Below are positions 3,595 to 23,379 of a stretch of 32,000 nucleotides of DNA, one piece after another. This DNA comes from Candidatus Harpocratesius repetitus (lineage in GTDB: Archaea > Asgardarchaeota > Lokiarchaeia > Sigyniarchaeales > Promethearchaeaceae), in NCBI GenBank assembly GCA_021498095.1, contig JAIZWK010000001.1, positions 1,920,001-1,952,000 on the forward strand, written 5' to 3'. The stretch's first letter is position 1. Each line of letters opens with the position of its first letter. The notes under the pieces are model-generated. The model saw only the letters and a list, made by a program, of their open reading frames with translations. It had not been told where the DNA came from and did no database searches. Position numbers and translations under genes: made by a program.

Positions 3595-5130
3595 TTGAGT
3601 AATAGAGGGAAGCAGCAAAAACAGTTATATGTATGTACTTACTGTAAACAAGGGTTTTTCTATTCTGAAGTTGAAGGAAAGAGTAAGATCTGTCGAAATT
3701 GCTTGCAAAACACTCTCAAACTTCAAAAACGGCGTACTATTTTAGTCTGTCCGACATGTCATCGCTATTATGATAGTTCAGATATTATCAATCTAGATAT
3801 TCCACGTGAAAAACGCCCTGTTTTTGAACTTGGAAAATTATTGTGTAGTAAGGATAAAACACCACTCTTAATTCGCGAGTTAAAGGAAGATATTCAACAA
3901 TTGAATCAACAATTATATGGCAAGTTTAAGCATGAAAAAGAATCTGAGATTTCAGCTGAAAGACAATTTCTTGAAAAATTGAAACAATTACGATCTGAAG
4001 AAGATGTTGAAAGAGATAAAGAATCGGTTAAACCTGTTGCTCCTATAGAAGAAGGTGTACCAGCACCATCTGAATATTTTTCCCGAAAATCAACTTGGCC
4101 AAGCGGTGAAAAACTGAATACTCCTCATGCAGATGAATTTTGGAAGTACTATTTTATTGATCGACAAATTTATGATCCTTCAAATTATCTTGGTGATGAG
4201 AAAAAAGTCCTAAAAATTAAGGGTTTACTGGATGAAATTAACCTTTATTTATTCAATCCAGATAAATTGAATCCTGGGCTTCCTGTTGTTGATCATCTTG
4301 AAAATGGAAAGATCTTTTATGTTGGAGATACTCATGGATCGATATTTGATCTTGATCAATGCATCAAATTTTTCGTAAGTGAAATCGAACAGTCTTTAAA
4401 GGAAGGTTATCATGTTTTAATTGTTTTTCTGGGAGATTATGTAGATCGCCATGAAATGGATATTCATAATTTGTTATATCTCTTTAGTTTTGCCCTCCAA
4501 TTTCCTCAAAATGTCCGATTATTACGTGGAAATCATGAAGAAGTTACAATTAACATGCAATATGGGTTTTGGAGCAACATTAATCGTTATCTTCCCAATT
4601 CTTATTTGTTCAATGATTTTGAATATACTTTTATCAATCTACCGTTAATTCATGTTGTTAGAACTCCAGAAAAAGCAGTAATGGCTTTACATGGTGGAAT
4701 TCCTTTTTATCCAAAAGAATATGAGATAATTCCTAAAATACCACGGATTGTCGATGGAACTGTCTTATTAAAACCTTCATTTTCAACGGTCGAAGAAATG
4801 GATGTTCTTTCTAAGCAAATTCTCTGGGGTGATCCTGAAGAAGAACTGCCGCCTAATGTTTACTATCTTCCCAGTCGACGTGGTGTGGGATATAGTTTTG
4901 GAAAAGAGATTTTTATGAAATTTCTCGATATTAATAATATTGATAGAGTAGTACGTTCTCATGAAGTCTTTATTGATGGACATAAAGAATACTTTGACGA
5001 TAAAATGTTCAGTATATTTTCCAGCTCGAGTTATGGAAAGCGTGATATTGATGCAAAAATCTTGGAAATTGATCTAAGAAGACCATGGGTACAGAATTGG
5101 AAATTATATACTATTTTAACAGATTTATAA
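3595..5130 (+). CDS. PPP-family Ser/Thr protein phosphatase with N-terminal tandem Zn-ribbon and coiled-coil region
   Basis: GDTHG, GDYVDR, LRGNHE, HGG, LWGDP, RRG..F, RSHE, FSSSSY; N-terminal CxxC x3 plus CxxD; TTG start with GAGG upstream. Confidence 0.92.
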   Translation: MSNRGKQQKQLYVCTYCKQGFFYSEVEGKSKICRNCLQNTLKLQKRRTILVCPTCHRYYDSSDIINLDIPREKRPVFELGKLLCSKDKTPLLIRELKEDIQQLNQQLYGKFKHEKESEISAERQFLEKLKQLRSEEDVERDKESVKPVAPIEEGVPAPSEYFSRKSTWPSGEKLNTPHADEFWKYYFIDRQIYDPSNYLGDEKKVLKIKGLLDEINLYLFNPDKLNPGLPVVDHLENGKIFYVGDTHGSIFDLDQCIKFFVSEIEQSLKEGYHVLIVFLGDYVDRHEMDIHNLLYLFSFALQFPQNVRLLRGNHEEVTINMQYGFWSNINRYLPNSYLFNDFEYTFINLPLIHVVRTPEKAVMALHGGIPFYPKEYEIIPKIPRIVDGTVLLKPSFSTVEEMDVLSKQILWGDPEEELPPNVYYLPSRRGVGYSFGKEIFMKFLDINNIDRVVRSHEVFIDGHKEYFDDKMFSIFSSSSYGKRDIDAKILEIDLRRPWVQNWKLYTILTDL

Positions 5131-13026: not shown

Positions 13027-14912
13027 CCTTCTTTAACAGAATTTTGCTTTCAGACATGTCATTAATCCAGATCCCCACGATTGGGTAAGAAATTCTCCGG
13101 CTGATAGGGTTTGAGTAATTTTTGCTAGTATTTTTCTATTCACATTTTTATGCCAGATTTTTGCTTTCCGGATTGTTTGCGGCTTGTATCTTGAAGATTT
13201 CAGAGATTTTATCAGTCTGTAATAATGCCATGAATTGCAAAGTAGAGAGGCGATGATAAAGCGAATATGACGGGCTTGGACACTCCGTTTTTTACATGGG
13301 ATCCAAAATTTGTCCTTAATGCTTTGAAAGGCACTTTCTATGCCCCATCGCTGGTGGTAGCCTGTAGCAACTTGCATAACTTCATCTTTAGCTGAATCTA
13401 TCGTTTCATCTAAGCGACAATTGACACAAAAAAACATCAGACGCTTACATAAATTTTGTTTCTTCTTTCTCAGGTTTTTTAGTTGAGCATAAAGCCCTCT
13501 ACATGTTTCATAGTGGGACCTTTCTTCATCAATCTTGAATCCTTTCCGATGTTTGCCTTTATAATTTAATTTTTTTGCGTTGTCCTTTGAATAATACTTC
13601 AATCGAAATTTAATATAGTGTCTCTCTGCGAGCTCTAGTTCCGATTCCAGTTTAAGAAGGTTTTGTTCTATTTTTTGTGCCTTTTTACGTGCCCACGACA
13701 AGCTTTGCTTCCGTTTACGGTTTGAATAGGCATCAAATGTCGCTATTGAGTAGAATGGTACCAAATGTCGAGTTCCTTTTGAATTAGACGCGAAATAGTG
13801 AAGCGTTGTCTTGATCAAGCCTTTATCATAATGTCCAAGTTCAATTTTGTCAATTTCAATATCTTTTCTTGAAGAATCCAGCAAAAATTCCCATTTTTTT
13901 GAAATGCCATCACGCATTTTTTTGGGGATACAAAAGCGTGGATTATGTGTAGGGTCTTTTGAGGGTGAAAATTTTCCTAAAGTGGCCCATGCAAACCCAA
14001 TCCCTTGATAATACTCTCGATCTCCATAAATTGCCTTCACATTGATATTTTGAGATTCAGCTTTTATTACTTCTTTTGCTATCAGTGAAAGCCAGTCAGG
14101 AGGGGCTTTTCGTTTATAGTGGCTTCCTGTTGCATATTTTGGTTGAGTTTGAATAATAAATTGGCTAGTAGTGTCGTATATGCCAACTTCAGAAAAGGCT
14201 TTACCATACATTTCCTTTTGTCCAATATATCCAACAGGTTGACAATGATTGGGCTTGATTCCGGTATATTCCTTAACTGTAGGATCGATTGCAGTAGAGA
14301 TGGTTTGGTTTTGCAGTGCTTTTTTCTTTAAATTTCTCCGCATAAATGTCTGTTGCTCTTGCAATATGCGATCTGCTTTCACAGGTCTAATTGTGTCAAA
14401 AGTTTCGTTTTGCGTTTTATACGTAGTTCTAAAGAGAGATTTGCCTCTATTCTTTCTATTATTCATTAAAAATGCTTTCATCATTCCGATAGGGTCTGTT
14501 TGTTCGCTTATCCATTGAATAAGCGAGTATGTATATTGTCCTATCTCACTTAGCAAATGTTGGGCTTGTTTGAAACTTGTATGGCATATAATTTGGGTCA
14601 AAGTTGACAAAACAAGATTGTTTGACTGAGTGGGTGTTATTTTGGGTTGCTTTTCCTTGACACGCTCAGCATTGAATAATGTGGTCAGAATACCGAAAGC
14701 TTTATTGGTTGGCAATACTTGGTTTGACATTGGATGGTGTGCCCTCGGGCAGTAATTTGGAATAGTTCGGCGACTTAACCAAATTCGCCATCCCTTTTGA
14801 ATCTATCGCCATATTTCTTGTTGTTTTGTAGATTCGATTTCCATGTCACGCAAGTTATTTTGATTCTAAGATTTTTCTCTCATCCTTCTTTGAAAGAATT
14901 CCGTTTTGCTTT
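13027..14912 (-). mobile_element. Putative insertion sequence, boundaries uncertain
   Basis: Intact transposase; segment visibly GC-richer than its flanks; imperfect direct repeat at 13027-13050 and 14884-14912; no convincing terminal inverted repeats or target duplication found. Confidence 0.5.
13033..14730 (-). CDS. DDE transposase, IS4 superfamily-like (ISH3/IS1634-like)
   Basis: AIDPT (D149), YGDREY (D237), YHQRWGIESAFQSIK (E465; Y-x2-R-W-x-I-E-x2-F-x2-x-K signature), followed by the LLCNSW helix. Confidence 0.85.
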   Translation of the reverse strand: MSNQVLPTNKAFGILTTLFNAERVKEKQPKITPTQSNNLVLSTLTQIICHTSFKQAQHLLSEIGQYTYSLIQWISEQTDPIGMMKAFLMNNRKNRGKSLFRTTYKTQNETFDTIRPVKADRILQEQQTFMRRNLKKKALQNQTISTAIDPTVKEYTGIKPNHCQPVGYIGQKEMYGKAFSEVGIYDTTSQFIIQTQPKYATGSHYKRKAPPDWLSLIAKEVIKAESQNINVKAIYGDREYYQGIGFAWATLGKFSPSKDPTHNPRFCIPKKMRDGISKKWEFLLDSSRKDIEIDKIELGHYDKGLIKTTLHYFASNSKGTRHLVPFYSIATFDAYSNRKRKQSLSWARKKAQKIEQNLLKLESELELAERHYIKFRLKYYSKDNAKKLNYKGKHRKGFKIDEERSHYETCRGLYAQLKNLRKKKQNLCKRLMFFCVNCRLDETIDSAKDEVMQVATGYHQRWGIESAFQSIKDKFWIPCKKRSVQARHIRFIIASLLCNSWHYYRLIKSLKSSRYKPQTIRKAKIWHKNVNRKILAKITQTLSAGEFLTQSWGSGLMTCLKAKFC

Positions 14913-16402: not shown

Positions 16403-17590
16403 TTAGTGTGAAGTTTTAGCATGATAATACTGCATCAATTGATGTTCTAAAAATTCCTTGTTCACCCATACAATACCTTTTCGCTGCTCTTCTTCAGGTC
16501 CAATTTCTGAAATGCTTGTTTCAGGTAATAATCGCAGAAAACGAGCATTGCCAATCTTTTTTCCATCATATGTTGAAGTACTAAACAAAGAAATTAAACG
16601 ATTATCCCAAAATAGATGATAACCTTCGCTAAATTTTTGATGACCTCTAATAAATAGATTAAAACCATTTAGTTCCATAAAATCTCGAAAAGCTTGCTCG
16701 CTAAATCTTGGTCGTCCAGTTCTGGGTGTTGGAGCAACCATTTCTTTTAATTCAGGATCTGGATCTGACCAAAGAATTGTTTGGGAATAAACATCCATAT
16801 CAAAATGTTCAAGTTGATAACAATTTAGATTAGATTCTATCTCATCTATTCGAATTGGGGCATAATTTGAGACATCAAATGGTATTCCTCCATGAACTAC
16901 TAGTCCCTGTTTATTCCCACTTCGAAATATTAATCCTAAAGGTAATTTGCTGAAAAAATCTGTAATAAGCTTCCATATCATTTCAAAACGCTCACGGGAT
17001 TGTGCTTTTTCAAATAGATGCTGCGAAAAACCATATCTGGAGCAAACTGATGAATCTTCGTGATTTCCACGTAAAATAAATACATTATCTGGAAAAAGGA
17101 TCCAAAATGAGAGAATAAAGGCTAAATTTTGTAAATCATAAGGATTTCGATCCACAATATCTCCAATCCAAATTACTTTGACTTTTGGATTTACTTGAAA
17201 TACCTTTATGAAGTAATCAATCATTAAATACGTATCATCAAATGAACCATGTGTATCTCCAACAAAATAATACGTATAATCTGGTGTTTGCATGTCTCGA
17301 ATAAATTTATGATATTTCTCAGTTGTATATTTATGTTCTAAGAGTTTTTCGGCCATTAGAAATAGATTCTCATAGTTTTCTAACAAATCAACGGGTTCTG
17401 ATTTGAATTTTTCTGAACCAGCAGCAAAATACCGAAAAAACCATTGCCACACATATTGAGGTGGATTCAAGTTTCCAATATAATAAAGTTGATCTCTTAA
17501 TTCATTTGGGATTTGATTTGCATTTGATTGTGTAATTTTAATCAACCTCTTGAGCGTATATTTTAAAGGGAATTCGATATGTTTTTCCAT
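16403..17590 (-). CDS. PPP-family Ser/Thr protein phosphatase
   Basis: GDTHG, GDIVDR, LRGNHE, HGG, LWSDP, RGHQ, FSTSTY; start overlaps the kinase 3' end by 53 nt. Confidence 0.92.
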   Translation of the reverse strand: MEKHIEFPLKYTLKRLIKITQSNANQIPNELRDQLYYIGNLNPPQYVWQWFFRYFAAGSEKFKSEPVDLLENYENLFLMAEKLLEHKYTTEKYHKFIRDMQTPDYTYYFVGDTHGSFDDTYLMIDYFIKVFQVNPKVKVIWIGDIVDRNPYDLQNLAFILSFWILFPDNVFILRGNHEDSSVCSRYGFSQHLFEKAQSRERFEMIWKLITDFFSKLPLGLIFRSGNKQGLVVHGGIPFDVSNYAPIRIDEIESNLNCYQLEHFDMDVYSQTILWSDPDPELKEMVAPTPRTGRPRFSEQAFRDFMELNGFNLFIRGHQKFSEGYHLFWDNRLISLFSTSTYDGKKIGNARFLRLLPETSISEIGPEEEQRKGIVWVNKEFLEHQLMQYYHAKTSH

Positions 17591-19514
17591 CCGGTGCTAC
17601 AAATGGGACTTCAATTAACATATTTCCCAAATTTGCCCGGGATAGTTGAATCGAGACATTATCTAAATTTTTTATTGCAACATTATTATAAACTTGTCGA
17701 TTTGGCATAGTTAAATTTGAAAGGTATGTTCCCATCGGTGAATAAATATCCCTAATATATGCAATATCACCGTCAATATATAATTGAAAAGAAAATTTAC
17801 CTTCATCTGTTGGTAGTAATGCGTTGTAAATATGTCCGTCCATTTCATGCGTCCGACCCACGTTTAAAATTTCCTCTCTTCCTATATTAACTATTGTTTT
17901 AGGCGGTATTTCTAAAAATCCTTGATTATAATCGCAATAAAGATAATATTTAATTCTTTTTTGAGGGGATTGGATTTTTTGAATTAATTTTCCTGCTGCG
18001 TCATAAATCCATTGTAATGCATCATAAACTTTAACCATATCTGCCATTCGATCTGCCGGCTCATATTGTGTCATATATTCTACTAGTTTATTGAATTCTT
18101 CTGGTAATTGTGGATTAAAATCGCTAGGATGAAGCACAAAATCTTCATTAGTGGCAGCAGCTCCTGCATAATGTCCTCCACTAAAAAGATAGAACATAAT
18201 ATGACCCAACATGTATATATCTGTTGTTGCAATTGGCTCAAATCCTGCCATTACTTCTGGAGGTGTGCCTCTATTTCGAATTCCTGTCGCTTCCGGCGTT
18301 GCTGATACGTAATAGGGTTTACGGGGATGATACATTTGATCCATTCCAATCTCTTTAGCCACTCCCCAATCAATAATTATTGGATAATAGTTTCCATCTT
18401 CTTGAGTTACAATCATTACATTTTGAACTGTTAAATCTCGGTGAACAATACCTTTTTGATGACAAAAATACATATGGCGAGTAATCGGCATTAAGATGTT
18501 CTTGATTAAATCTTGTAATGCAGTTAGAGTTAAATGGTCAAGATCAGGGAAATTTTGAATATACCATTTATCTAATGGAATTCCATCAATGAATTCTAAA
18601 AAGATATAGTATTCTGGATTTTGAAATTGTGTTAAATGAAGATTACCTAAGTATTTCATAGTTTTTTCAGGGGATTCACTTTGAATTTCGGTGATCTTTG
18701 ATTCTCTTTTCCAGTATTTTTCACAGAAGTTTTTACCTGATTCTGGATCATGAAATCGAGTGAAATAAAACTCTTTCAAAGCTGCAATTCGATCGGTGTT
18801 CATGTTTTTTACTTTATGAACTGCTCCCATACCTCCAGTTCCAATTTTTTCGATAATTTGGTATTTTTCACCATTTAATATTAAAATATCTCCATTTTTA
18901 ATCCCTGCATGAGTTTTTTCTACTAAAGCATTATCTGGTTTTGTAGGAGATGGAGGAAATGCCTGAATATTTTGAAAAATAGGATTTTTTTGGGCATTTA
19001 AATTAGAATTCTTTGAACTGACCTTTTGAGATGATGATTCTTCATTTCCTTCTATAATTGGGAAAGGTAAAAATGCACTTTTTTTTATTTTAGGTTTTGG
19101 TTGTGCTGCTAATGTTTTTGCCAATTCCAAAGCTTCATGTGAACTTGATGCAGCTAATTTCCTTCGTTTTGGGATTTTTGGTGGTAGTTTTGCATCAAAA
19201 CCTTTGATTGGTGAACTATTTTTAGATCTTAATGTATTACTATTACTCTTTGGTTTTACACCAATTCTAATCGCTTTTAGCTGACCCTTACAATTTGACG
19301 ATTGGCATATTAATTTTGAATTGCCATGTAGTTGAATGAAGCTATTTTTATTTTGAGTCAAACCACATTTCCGACATCGAAGAATAAATCTACCGCTTAT
19401 TTTTTCTAAGCGAAGATTATTGCATTGTTCACAAGTATGTGTTCCTTGGCTATCTAAAAGATAAATATTTTTACATTGAGGGCATTGAAAGAATTCTTTG
19501 GGAGAAATCGACAT
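17538..19514 (-). CDS. Hanks-type protein kinase with N-terminal tandem Zn-ribbon and C-terminal FHA-like domain
   Basis: GTGGMGAV, AALKE, HRDLTVQN, DWG, PPE, DIYMLG, R in subdomain XI; eight N-terminal Cys; C-terminal IGR...IRDIYSPMGT resembles FHA GR and D-x2-S-x-NGT. Confidence 0.93.
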   Translation of the reverse strand: MSISPKEFFQCPQCKNIYLLDSQGTHTCEQCNNLRLEKISGRFILRCRKCGLTQNKNSFIQLHGNSKLICQSSNCKGQLKAIRIGVKPKSNSNTLRSKNSSPIKGFDAKLPPKIPKRRKLAASSSHEALELAKTLAAQPKPKIKKSAFLPFPIIEGNEESSSQKVSSKNSNLNAQKNPIFQNIQAFPPSPTKPDNALVEKTHAGIKNGDILILNGEKYQIIEKIGTGGMGAVHKVKNMNTDRIAALKEFYFTRFHDPESGKNFCEKYWKRESKITEIQSESPEKTMKYLGNLHLTQFQNPEYYIFLEFIDGIPLDKWYIQNFPDLDHLTLTALQDLIKNILMPITRHMYFCHQKGIVHRDLTVQNVMIVTQEDGNYYPIIIDWGVAKEIGMDQMYHPRKPYYVSATPEATGIRNRGTPPEVMAGFEPIATTDIYMLGHIMFYLFSGGHYAGAAATNEDFVLHPSDFNPQLPEEFNKLVEYMTQYEPADRMADMVKVYDALQWIYDAAGKLIQKIQSPQKRIKYYLYCDYNQGFLEIPPKTIVNIGREEILNVGRTHEMDGHIYNALLPTDEGKFSFQLYIDGDIAYIRDIYSPMGTYLSNLTMPNRQVYNNVAIKNLDNVSIQLSRANLGNMLIEVPFVAPDGKTYRIPFKIYAQEVD

Positions 19515-19624: not shown

Positions 19625-19843
19625 ATGGAATTGAATTCTAAAAAAACCGCTTTTATTCGTTATATGACTTCTGGTGATAAACCAATATTTCGAAACGAAC
19701 AAGATTATCCACTCGAAGATTTAATTCATCCATTAATATATAATGATCTTACCTCAAATAAAGGTAATTTATTAAAAATTCCTATGGCATATCATTTTCA
19801 ACGCCAATTTACAGCATTTGTTAAAAGTTTATTGCAAGATTGA
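19625..19843 (+). CDS. Small hypothetical protein (72 aa)
   Basis: ATG-started ORF filling the gap between the kinase and rnz, with codon composition like its neighbours; no recognisable motif. Confidence 0.5.
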   Translation: MELNSKKTAFIRYMTSGDKPIFRNEQDYPLEDLIHPLIYNDLTSNKGNLLKIPMAYHFQRQFTAFVKSLLQD

Positions 19844-19899: not shown

Positions 19900-20982
19900 A
19901 TGGAACTGATATTTCTAGGAACAAGCGGAGCCACTCCCACTAAGGAGCGAAATTTACCATCTGTTGCTCTTAGGTTGGATTCTGGGCATATTTTACTATT
20001 TGATGCAGGTGAAGATGTTCAACGAAGATTTGAAGCTGCAAATTTAAAATTTAATGTTCCATCAACAATTTTTATTTCACATTTACATGGAGATCACGTT
20101 ATTGGTCTTCCAGGTCTTTTATTTAATTTTCATCTTAATTCCCGCACAAAACCTTTAACAATTGTTGGTCCATTAGGTATTGCTTCTTTTTTATTAATGC
20201 ATTATCAAATTGTTGGATTAAAGGCTCAGAATTATCCATTAACTGTCATTGAAATTGTTCCTCCAAGATTGAATAATTCCAATTTCAAAAATTCTACAAA
20301 TAACGTTGAAAATCATCAAAAGAATCAAATTTCTCAAAATACTCAGATAATTGTTTATTCTCGCTTTTTAACACCTGAATATGAACGCAAATTTTTAACT
20401 AAAGAAGATAATATCATTTTTTCTGCAAAAAAGTATCACGTAAAACACTATTGGTTGAATCATTCTGTGCCTACTATGGGTTTTAGATTTGAAGAACATC
20501 CATTAAATGGAAAATTCAATCCAATACAAGCAAAAAAAATTGGTGTTCCTGAAGGAAAGTTGTGGAAACGCCTTCAAAATGGTCAATCAATCACATTAAA
20601 GGATGGACGAATAATAAATCCTGTCGAATCTGGTATTGTTACCCCTCCTCGACCTGGAAGGATTATTTGTTACGGTGCTGACACAGCAAAATGTGATTCA
20701 CTCGTTAAATTAGCTGAAAACGCAGATATTTTCATATGTGAATCTACATTTGGTAAAGAACTCCAAGATATAGCTATAGAAAAAAAACACCTTACTGCAG
20801 AAATGGCAGCAGAAATCGCCAAAAAGGCAAGAGTTCAAATGCTATTTTTAACTCATTTTTCCAGTCGTTATAAAGATGTAAAGGATTTATTAATTGAAGC
20901 CAAGCAAATATTCCCATCAACACAAACGGCTAAAGATCTTTTATCTGTAAATATAAAAGTTCGAAATCAAAAAAAGAATTAA
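19900..20982 (+). CDS. rnz: Ribonuclease Z (tRNA 3' endonuclease)
   Basis: FLGT...PT..RN, DAGE, SHLHGDH, GP-rich exosite GVPEG, ADT, EST, HLT, THFSSRY. Confidence 0.95.
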   Translation: MELIFLGTSGATPTKERNLPSVALRLDSGHILLFDAGEDVQRRFEAANLKFNVPSTIFISHLHGDHVIGLPGLLFNFHLNSRTKPLTIVGPLGIASFLLMHYQIVGLKAQNYPLTVIEIVPPRLNNSNFKNSTNNVENHQKNQISQNTQIIVYSRFLTPEYERKFLTKEDNIIFSAKKYHVKHYWLNHSVPTMGFRFEEHPLNGKFNPIQAKKIGVPEGKLWKRLQNGQSITLKDGRIINPVESGIVTPPRPGRIICYGADTAKCDSLVKLAENADIFICESTFGKELQDIAIEKKHLTAEMAAEIAKKARVQMLFLTHFSSRYKDVKDLLIEAKQIFPSTQTAKDLLSVNIKVRNQKKN

Positions 20983-20989
20983 TAATAGT

Positions 20990-21050
20990 AAAAAGAAATA
21001 AAAGTAAAAGGAAATAAAAAAAGGTTTACTATGGTGGTTAAAATCCACCA
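20990..21050 (-). terminator. Short hairpin plus U-rich tract after the ubiquitin-like gene
   Basis: TGGTGG/CCACCA inverted repeat (21032-21037 / 21045-21050) around the stop codon, followed on the minus strand by T-rich runs. Confidence 0.4.
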
Positions 21051-21247
21051 GCAATTTTAGGTAAAATAGTGATTTCGCTTCCTTGCTCAATTACATTATC
21101 TAAGCTAACTTTTTTTCCATTAGCTAAAACAACAAAAACTTTACTTTCTAATTTTAAATCTTTCAGCAATTCTCTTACCGTGCGTGTAGTTTGAACGCGG
21201 TAAGTCTTAAGTGTTCCAATTGTGTTAATTTCTTGAAGACTCTGCAT
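21038..21247 (-). CDS. MoaD/ThiS/SAMP-like ubiquitin-fold protein with a one-residue extension after the di-Gly (GG-F)
   Basis: 69 aa; VVLANG...LD..I..GSEITILPKIAGG is the beta-grasp sulfur-carrier pattern; codons GGT GGA TTT TAA. Confidence 0.88.
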   Translation of the reverse strand: MQSLQEINTIGTLKTYRVQTTRTVRELLKDLKLESKVFVVLANGKKVSLDNVIEQGSEITILPKIAGGF

Positions 21248-21471: not shown

Positions 21472-23379
21472 ATGGATGATTCCCACATTTTTGCTGAACA
21501 AGAAGCTATTATTAATTATGTTAAACAAGCTATCCTCAAAATTAGTCATTGTTCAACAGAAACAGAAAAAGAACAGAGATTGTATGATTTATTAGCATAT
21601 CTTATATCTTCTTCTAATGACATCGCTCAGCGACATGATTTTTATGAAGCTGCTGGAAGGTTATATAGTGCAGCTTACTATTTAGAGCAACTTCATCCTT
21701 TAAAAGCCCAAGAAATCTATTTTCAAGTAATCAATTATTATCAAGCTTATACAGAACATCTAATTCATAAAAAAAACTTCTCAGAAGCAGCGAATGTAGT
21801 TTTGAAAATAGCATCTATATATAAAAAAAAAATAAAAAATCAAAATGAATATCTCGAACAACTAAAACTCGGAATAGAATTGTTGAAAAAATCATTTAAA
21901 ATTATTGAAGGTCCTCTTGAAAATTTATCAAACTTAAAATTAAGAGAAATTTGTCATAATCATCAAAATTTAGCTTTATTATATGAAAAAATAAAGAACT
22001 GGAATTTAATGCTTTTTGAAGCAAGAACTGCCCTAAAAATTGCTAAAAAGATACCTGATTATATGGTAGCTGCTAATTCTTTCCAATATATATCTCGTAG
22101 TATAAGCAATTTACAAAATAGAACCAAAGGAATAAATATACTTCTTGAAGCTATTGATTATTTTGCAAAAGAAGCAGAAAATTGCGAAATTAAAAACGAA
22201 TTCATACCTTTAGCTCAACTTTACCAAATCATTAAAAATTTGTATGATCAAATGAATAATGTTGAAAGATATGAATATTTTGCAAGAAAGGAAGCAGGTG
22301 TATATCTTGCCTTAGCTAACCAAGGAATACGAAATCGGATTAAAAATGAGCAAATCGCATCCTATTACAGAGGGGCTGCTTTGTGCTACCAGACTTTGAA
22401 AGGAAATTCAATTGATGCGGCCAGTTGTTTTTTTTTAGCGGCACACTATTCCAAAAAAGCGAAAAAATTTTATGATGCTGCAATAAGTTATGAGGATGCT
22501 GCTAAATTACTTGAGAATTTGCTTAAATATCAAAAAGCTTGGGATCTCTATCAACAGGCAAGTTCTTGTGCAATTCGTGTTAATGATTATGAATTAGCAA
22601 TTTTAAATTTGATTAATGCAGAAGCAGTTGGAACAAAAATAAATCAAGATCTTCAATGTTTATATCATAAAATGTATAAATACCTCTTAAAATATGCACA
22701 AATTCAACATTATAAAGAGAATTATTTTATTTCAGGAACACTTTTCTTAGAAGCTGCTGAAAGTCTCTCAAAACTTCCTGAAATACCAATTGATAAAATT
22801 AAAGGGATTCTTTATGCTTGTTATTGTGAATATCTCTCTCTTTTTCAAAAAACAGATATAAAATCTTATCCTTCTTCAACAATATATTATATTGGAGTTT
22901 TAGTAAATTTTCTAGATCCAATTTTTTCATCGATGACAGAAGAAGAGATTAAGTATTTAGAAGATATAAAAAAAAAAGTCGAAATATTTAATGAAAAAAC
23001 TAATAAAAAGAAAAAGAAAGATGAAAAAGATGTTAGATTTTTAATAGGTAATCATCATATTAATCTTAGTTCTTTAAATAAATATGAAAATCGAAATCTT
23101 AATGAGAATCAAGAGAAATATGAGAAATCTTTTTTCAAACTTCAATCTTCCCAAGAAATTTATGAATATTTAATTTCTCATGCTCCTAAAAAATATATTG
23201 ACTTAATTTCAACTCTGCGCGATTTTTTACATTCACTTAAACCTCTTAGAAAATCATTTTTCATAAAAAATAGAATTGTTTTTCCTGATCATGGAATTGC
23301 TGAAATCCTAAAAATCCATGATTTAATTCTTAAATATCCGTTACTATTAAAATCAAGTAATTCGATTTCTTTAATTTAA
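21472..23379 (+). CDS. TPR-like alpha-solenoid protein with a SNAP-like segment
   Basis: Repeated A-A-x-x-Y-x-x-A-A helices, e.g. AASCFFLAAHYSKKAKKFYDAAISYEDAAKLLE; no TM segment. Confidence 0.75.
   Translation: MDDSHIFAEQEAIINYVKQAILKISHCSTETEKEQRLYDLLAYLISSSNDIAQRHDFYEAAGRLYSAAYYLEQLHPLKAQEIYFQVINYYQAYTEHLIHKKNFSEAANVVLKIASIYKKKIKNQNEYLEQLKLGIELLKKSFKIIEGPLENLSNLKLREICHNHQNLALLYEKIKNWNLMLFEARTALKIAKKIPDYMVAANSFQYISRSISNLQNRTKGINILLEAIDYFAKEAENCEIKNEFIPLAQLYQIIKNLYDQMNNVERYEYFARKEAGVYLALANQGIRNRIKNEQIASYYRGAALCYQTLKGNSIDAASCFFLAAHYSKKAKKFYDAAISYEDAAKLLENLLKYQKAWDLYQQASSCAIRVNDYELAILNLINAEAVGTKINQDLQCLYHKMYKYLLKYAQIQHYKENYFISGTLFLEAAESLSKLPEIPIDKIKGILYACYCEYLSLFQKTDIKSYPSSTIYYIGVLVNFLDPIFSSMTEEEIKYLEDIKKKVEIFNEKTNKKKKKDEKDVRFLIGNHHINLSSLNKYENRNLNENQEKYEKSFFKLQSSQEIYEYLISHAPKKYIDLISTLRDFLHSLKPLRKSFFIKNRIVFPDHGIAEILKIHDLILKYPLLLKSSNSISLI

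Follow-up and report, generated by a model that had tools for sequence, protein, structure and literature searches.

A conserved gene pair in the Asgard archaeon Candidatus Harpocratesius combines a Hanks-type kinase carrying an FHA-fold tail with a PPP phosphatase and probably serves reversible Ser/Thr phosphorylation

The window analysed here, a stretch of 32,000 nucleotides (nt; ~31% G+C) at positions 1,920,001 to 1,952,000 of contig JAIZWK010000001.1 of Candidatus Harpocratesius repetitus, carries a protein kinase gene followed by a protein phosphatase gene. Two long minus-strand open reading frames (ORFs), 17538..19514 (658 amino acids, aa) and 16403..17590 (395 aa as the longest ORF), have 53 nt in common (17538-17590), and the coordinates assigned to both in a preliminary description, made from the DNA letters alone, match the sequence exactly. 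The source organism is a Lokiarchaeial Asgard archaeon of the family Promethearchaeaceae (NCBI taxonomy). The closest relative of the kinase, at 94% identity, belongs to Candidatus Harpocratesius sp., and Promethearchaeota, among them Promethearchaeum syntrophicum and Lokiarchaeum ossiferum, supply the other full-length relatives (50-76% identity). These relatives and the taxonomy rule out a bacterial origin of the window. Read by eye, a TATA-like element lies ~28 nt upstream of the kinase ATG, and a T-rich tract with a further TATA-like element lies downstream of the phosphatase, ahead of a Bax1-I gene. We consider it probable that the two genes form a Promethearchaeaceae-specific operon encoding a module for reversible Ser/Thr phosphorylation.

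The kinase is a multidomain protein in which an N-terminal tandem Cys4 zinc-ribbon module (aa 1-85; 19260..19514, minus strand, as are all parts of this gene) is followed by a low-complexity Ser/Pro/Lys-rich linker (aa 86-215; 18870..19259), a Hanks-type protein kinase domain (aa 218-491; 18042..18863) and, at the C-terminus, an FHA-fold domain in which the Gly-Arg motif precedes a long insertion (aa 519-658; 17541..17960). The catalytic domain matches Pfam Pkinase (PF00069) over residues 218-491 with 75.4 bits (cut-off 31.7) and an E value of 6e-21. Its best solved relatives are eukaryotic cyclin-dependent kinases (CDKs), at an E value of only 1e-9, and it is a divergent member of the superfamily. 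Residues invariant in 32 orthologues include G225, G227 and G228 of the GTGGMG loop, K247, E271, H358-R359-D360 and N365, together with D382-W383-G384 (a DWG variant), P418 and E420 (a TPPE variant), D432 and R489. Because all catalytic motifs are invariant among the orthologues, the kinase should be an active enzyme, which agrees with the role of writer proposed for it earlier.

The zinc-ribbon module contains eight conserved Cys and the motif GRFILRCxxCGLTQNK (23 orthologues). Two of the Cys, C70 and C75, are invariant in 32 of 32 full-length orthologues, and the remaining six are kept in at least 90%. The model of this module has a pLDDT (predicted local distance difference test) score of 76, and Foldseek returned for it only generic, non-significant zinc-ribbon matches, for example PolD and the RNA polymerase subunit Rpb12/RpoP. 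Within the linker, the short motifs PxxPxRRxL and FxPFP are conserved, and P112, P115, R118 and P152 are each at least 90% conserved in the orthologue alignment.

The C-terminal domain had been described as FHA-like, and both this fold and the approximate boundaries given for it are borne out by structure prediction. Modelled by AlphaFold2 from 35 family members, residues 505-658 reach a mean pLDDT of 91, and the list of Foldseek matches in the PDB is headed by FHA domains (ArnA, 5a8i, at the top, followed by CEP170, Rv0020c and APLF). VIA-align superimposes the model on solved FHA domains with Z scores of 11.2-8.6 and a root-mean-square deviation of 2.1-2.6 A over 93-102 residues, a span that takes in nearly entire FHA chains of ~100 residues. 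Independent sequence evidence points the same way. With the family profile, another site turns up in the organism's own genome (E 1.6e-4), and Pfam FHA matches there with an E value of 1.7e-9; hhalign aligns the family with this Pfam-positive protein at 92% probability (E 6e-7); and 12 of the 35 family members match Pfam FHA (PF00498) themselves, the best at E 8.5e-5. Against PDB sequences, the profile finds ArnA alone (E 0.4), and the window's own residues 500-658 have no match in Pfam, nor any PDB sequence match by phmmer, at E values up to 10. Because the matches of the structure model are joined by this sequence evidence, we regard the FHA fold as confirmed. An exhaustive search of species representatives gave six matches and located the domain almost exclusively in orthologous kinases. 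Two of the six, a repeat-containing protein bearing a type IX secretion signal (P0124) and a Laminin_G_3 protein (P0126), appeared spurious and were excluded from the alignment.

The downstream gene (16403..17590, minus strand) encodes a phosphatase of 395 aa as the longest ORF, or of ~377-380 aa with TTG 17545 or ATT 17536 as its start codon. Pfam Metallophos matches it with 82.5 bits, and the best 60 of its 94 PDB matches are PP1, PP2A, PP5, rdgC, BSU1 and FAP15 (E 6e-26 to 7e-21). In a word-indexed search, eukaryotic PP5- and PPEF-type enzymes come next beyond the matches of Promethearchaeota type. The blocks GDTHG, GDIVDRN, GNHE, HGG, LWSDP and RGH align with PP1, and all 28 orthologues keep D112, H114, D144, R148, N176, H177, H233, H317 and Y341 unchanged, and with them the full set of PPP metal and phosphate ligands. 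DRN stands in place of DRG and STSTYD in place of SAPNYC, and an extra N-terminal segment of ~35 residues carries a conserved YVWQWFFRYFA motif. The NCBIfam ApaH model scores only 24 bits against a cut-off of 176. Judged by its invariant ligands and closest solved relatives, the product is an intact member of the PPP (PP1/PP2A-like) family, and the part of eraser suggested for it appears well founded.

The pairing of the two genes is conserved. The 17 related loci examined reduce to 14 distinct places, and in 13 of the 14 a PPP orthologue lies directly downstream of the kinase on the same strand, with tight spacing, so that the check by synteny suggested in the preliminary description comes out in favour of the pair. 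At the fourteenth place, a metagenomic locus (L003), a gene for a 387-aa Rag/Gtr1/Arf-like small GTPase (L003:7857-9020, plus strand) stands between the two, which hints at a link between the kinase-phosphatase module and small-GTPase signalling. The flanking genes vary between genera while the pair stays together, even where the kinases are as little as 50% identical (range 50-94%). We found the FHA-tailed kinase in 9 of the 13 other species-representative genomes of the organism's GTDB family. None of the 135 sister-family genomes searched has a match, and a sample of 200 genomes from across the phylum gave no further instance. By this distribution, the FHA-tailed kinase appears to be an invention at the level of the family Promethearchaeaceae.

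We are rather confident that the kinase and phosphatase genes constitute a functionally linked operon. In the scheme that we favour, both proteins would be made from one transcript, with the phosphatase starting at or within a few nt of the kinase stop. The first gene would yield a soluble kinase whose tandem zinc ribbon, followed by a disordered linker, probably targets it to a partner. We infer that this enzyme would autophosphorylate and phosphorylate substrates, and that the conserved loop face of the FHA-fold domain (Arg546 and Ser592, both invariant, with the conserved Gly595-Thr596 and a conserved His/Asp-rich insertion) would bind a phosphosite. This phosphosite could belong to the kinase, in the manner of activation of the Chk2/Rad53 type, or to a substrate, and the phosphatase would then reset the phosphorylated state. 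A complex predicted for residues 100-658 of the kinase and residues 16-395 of the phosphatase scored 0.01, which is below the mark and is not evidence either way.

What the FHA-fold domain may bind depends on its pocket, the positions of which were mapped by HMMER alignment to ArnA, by hhalign alignment and by the family alignment, with residue roles according to PMC6509490. The phosphate site of ArnA is formed by Arg132, Ser146 and Thr167, equivalent to that of Rad53 FHA1 (PMC6509490). The Gly-Arg of the beta3-beta4 loop is present: at least 90% of the family keep G545, and R546, the counterpart of the phosphate-binding Arg132, is invariant. The Ser-x-x-Gly-Thr loop is likewise retained: S592 never varies, G595 is kept in at least 90% of the family, and T596 is Thr in most relatives and Ser or Cys in some. 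The remaining positions differ. G572 takes the place of Ser146 (Gly, Asp, Asn or Glu in the family), S575 that of the His of S-x-x-H (variable), P593 that of Thr167 (Lys in most relatives) and M594 that of the Asn of N-G (variable). K573, which adjoins the lost Ser, is Lys, Arg or Gln in most relatives, and D589 is invariant. In the model, a two-helix insertion of ~20 residues separates the Gly-Arg motif from the next core strand; its D559 is invariant, and H556, G560 and H561 are at least 90% conserved, as is C527. The most conserved positions of the domain lie in the loops that match the peptide-binding end of FHA domains. Given that this canonical binding face is under strong constraint, it presumably binds something.

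Several observations weigh against the scheme proposed above. The canonical Ser, His and Asn of the pocket (Rad53 S85, H88 and N107) are replaced, at positions that vary within the family, and the window's own C-terminal domain gives no match to Pfam FHA even at an E value of 10, although a third of the family does. Four of the 13 family genomes have no match to the FHA-tailed kinase, and these genomes are only 76-91% complete. Action of the phosphatase on the kinase or its products is putative, and the genome has seven other PPP paralogues and six other kinase-like matches. The state of the pocket would suit a tail that keeps the FHA fold as a phosphorylation-independent interaction or regulatory domain, so that the locus would hold a writer and an eraser and no reader. 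The Pro at the position of the ArnA Thr, the missing Pfam FHA match of the window's own domain and the insertion with its conserved residues also favour such a tail, in which Cys527, His556, Asp559 and His561 possibly form a metal site or a new pocket. Yet the key phosphate-binding Arg is invariant, the Ser-x-x-Gly-Thr loop is retained, a Lys, Arg or Gln usually sits beside the lost Ser, and comparably long insertions occur at the same point in Pfam-positive FHA proteins of the same genome. We take a non-reading tail to be a serious alternative, somewhat short of an even prospect. Of the reader role that had been assigned to the domain, the fold and the phosphate-binding Arg and loop stand and the canonical Ser, His and Asn do not; true binding of phospho-Thr is plausible, and we would call it nearly an even matter. 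As for the pair as a whole, co-transcription could serve shared regulation only, with the phosphatase acting mainly on other targets and no self-contained switch. The eight PPP paralogues and several kinases of the genome would allow this, kinase and phosphatase genes also cluster elsewhere in it (~635-644 kb and ~1.870-1.874 Mb), and in one lineage the GTPase gene separates the pair. But adjacency has been kept among relatives with kinases 50-94% identical despite changing flanks, and we regard a phosphatase with mainly other targets as improbable.

The junction itself (17534..17590, minus strand) offers three candidate starts for the phosphatase: ATG 17590, with the overlap of 53 nt, TTG 17545, with an overlap of 8 nt, and ATT 17536, 1 nt past the kinase stop. 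By sequence these are equally possible. The cistrons abut whichever of the three applies, an arrangement that would fit co-transcription and, possibly, termination-reinitiation coupling, a process described in archaea. The 53-nt overlap from which coupling had been proposed exists as the longest-ORF reading but is not secure, because, by junction alignment and frame analysis of 15 related loci, only the window and its 94%-identical relative (L004) have an open frame from ATG 17590. This ATG sits in conserved kinase codons, the Asp-Gly of the C-terminal PDGKTYRIPF, so that the kinase frame explains its conservation. In the next relatives (L005, L006 and L023; L005 and L023 correspond to the two other genomes of the same genus, G089 and G094) a stop at the site of the window's TTG closes the phosphatase frame from that ATG. 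In the orthologues, the phosphatase start falls at -4 to +35 nt relative to the kinase stop and the product has 371-389 aa, and the 53-nt overlap is probably not the conserved arrangement. It could nonetheless be real in Harpocratesius if an ancestral ATG became ATT and a TAG became TTG, after which the in-kinase ATG 17590 was recruited, adding 15-18 residues to the phosphatase. The restriction of the open frame to the window and L004 would agree with such a history, as would the finding that, where L023 and L005 have their ATG start, the window reads ATT (17536) and L006 reads ATA. However, all 27 orthologues compared (27/27) are shorter, TTG 17545 is available as a canonical start, and the sole substitution between the window and L004 within the overlap is silent for the kinase and replaces Thr by Met in the phosphatase (n=1, a weak lean). 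We think this recruitment unlikely, and we doubt that ATG 17590 is the start actually used.

Two related loci show oddities of their own in the phosphatase gene. L006 (7953-8075) has no ATG, GTG or TTG between the upstream stop and the conserved phosphatase N-terminal region, and in L007 (L007:7920-9059) the phosphatase orthologue is split by an in-frame stop and called as pieces of 52 aa and 275 aa. An assembly error, a pseudogene or a non-canonical start could account for either case.

The genome as a whole contains eight PPP-like genes, one PP2C gene, seven kinase-domain matches and four Pfam FHA domains. PPP enzymes are the usual Ser/Thr phosphatases of archaea (PMC5007285). The contrast drawn in the preliminary description, in which a PPP phosphatase beside a Hanks kinase stood out from the bacterial habit of pairing such kinases with PP2C enzymes, does not apply, because the organism is an Asgard archaeon, where PPP enzymes are normal.

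A paralogous PPP phosphatase with an N-terminal zinc module (3595..5130, plus strand; Metallophos E 4e-19) had also been proposed to form a three-gene network with the pair. It is 29-35% identical to the operon phosphatase and ranks sixth of eight among the PPP matches of the genome. Its orthologue lies ~10-18 kb from the kinase in four of the four family genomes checked, a linkage that may be passive because the whole region is syntenic. The zinc modules of this phosphatase (3595-3924, plus strand) and of the kinase (19260-19514, minus strand) have in common the spacing CxxC-x13/14-CxxC-x15-CxxC and an R-x-IL-x-C motif, and the module recurs in an orthologue of the 3595 phosphatase (P0174). 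BLAST between the two N-terminal modules is not significant (E 4.2), and hhalign gives 73% probability (E 3e-5, 58 columns). With linkage in four genomes and this weak zinc-ribbon similarity as its evidence, the three-gene network is a lead and not a finding. A bolder combination, in which the tail would define a new Promethearchaeaceae-specific FHA subfamily with an altered pocket (the invariant Arg plus the Cys/His/Asp-bearing insertion) and the zinc ribbon would be an address tag common to the kinase and the 3595 phosphatase, strikes us as a long shot. If true, the shared tag would deliver the writer and a second eraser to the same target, a targeting logic so far undescribed in prokaryotic Ser/Thr signalling.

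A second phospho-signalling cluster lies in the same genome (G000:C1 ~635,000-645,500; loci L011, L014 and L019). At ~635-644 kb, two PPP genes are accompanied by one for a PP2C, one for a Hanks kinase and one for a zinc-ribbon-FHA protein of 280 aa, whose zinc ribbon, Pro-rich linker and Pfam-positive FHA domain give it an architecture resembling that of Sulfolobus ArnA. Another multi-zinc-ribbon protein flanks it, and a neighbouring 253-aa ORF has no Pfam match.

On the side divergent from the kinase, a neighbourhood is kept across the family. It comprises, in order, a 70-86-aa ORF without a Pfam family (19625-19843, plus strand), a metallo-beta-lactamase-fold gene of tRNase Z / Apyc1-like type (19900-20982, plus strand), a ThiS/SAMP2-like ubiquitin-like gene (21038-21247) and a gene for a SNAP-like TPR protein (21472-23379, plus strand); in P. 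syntrophicum (L001), a faint TPR match takes the place of SNAP at the last position. On the other side, the Bax1-I gene was considered as a conserved third member and rejected: an unrelated gene follows the phosphatase in L. ossiferum, and a metallo-beta-lactamase-fold gene does so in P. syntrophicum. Farther along, a 565-aa ORF (13033-14730, minus strand) that weakly matches a DDE transposase lies between the gene for a 1267-aa repeat protein and a cupin gene. L004 lacks a transposase gene in the short gap between its Bax1-I gene and the 1267-aa gene, and the ORF looks like a strain-specific insertion.

Promethearchaeum syntrophicum MK-D1 and Lokiarchaeum ossiferum, the two cultured Lokiarchaeia, both possess the kinase-phosphatase unit, which is therefore among the few Asgard signalling modules that are directly testable. 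From the perspective of signalling evolution, the fusion of an FHA-fold domain to a kinase, familiar from eukaryotic checkpoint kinases, also occurs in the archaeal lineage closest to eukaryotes; it is limited to one Asgard family among the genomes searched and has a non-canonical pocket.

Rad53, Chk2, Dun1 and Mek1 likewise join an FHA domain and a Ser/Thr kinase in a single chain, and the FHA structures of Chk2, Dun1 and Mek1 align with the tail at Z scores of 8.7-9.7. In eukaryotic checkpoint kinases, binding of the FHA domain to a phosphosite drives dimerisation and activation, which may serve as a model for the kinase described here. These enzymes differ in their N-terminal FHA domain, their canonical Ser/His/Asn pocket and their lack of a zinc-ribbon module and of an operon partner. 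Sequence comparison gives no sign of orthology to them, the closest solved relatives of the kinase domain being the CDKs mentioned above.

A writer, a reader and an eraser stand together in one prokaryotic locus in the actinobacterial cluster fhaA-fhaB-pstP-pknA-pknB. In Deinococcus, a kinase, FHA and a PP2C are likewise reported to be encoded in a single operon, DRA0331-0334 (10.64898/2026.01.23.701218). These bacterial clusters have a PP2C/PPM eraser and canonical FHA domains mostly on separate proteins, whereas the unit described here has a PPP eraser and a fused, divergent FHA domain. Its phosphatase resembles the archaeal PPPs (PP1-arch of S. solfataricus and M. thermophila, and Saci-PP2A), which are monomeric catalytic subunits with the motifs GDxHG, GDxVDR and GNHE (PMC5007285), but differs from them in its DRN and STSTYD motifs and in the N-terminal segment with YVWQWFFRYFA.

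The nearest parallel among archaea is the archaellum network of Sulfolobus acidocaldarius, which includes ArnA (a zinc finger plus FHA), ArnB, the kinases ArnC and ArnD and the PPP phosphatase PP2A. Both are archaeal sets of Hanks kinases, a zinc-finger FHA reader (in the present case a putative one) and a PPP eraser (PMC6509490, PMC7472852, PMC5007285), and the ArnA FHA structure (5a8i), the top Foldseek match of the tail, aligns with it at a Z score of 10.7. In Sulfolobus, however, the zinc finger and FHA domain make up a protein of their own and the phosphatase gene has no kinase gene as its partner, whereas here zinc ribbons, kinase and FHA fold are fused and the phosphatase is the next cistron. 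ArnA also retains the full Arg/Ser/Thr triad, of which the Harpocratesius tail keeps the Arg alone. With writer, reader and eraser sets already known in Sulfolobus (PMC7472852, PMC6509490) and in bacteria, the unit is a lineage-specific variant of known archaeal phospho-signalling and introduces no new principle.

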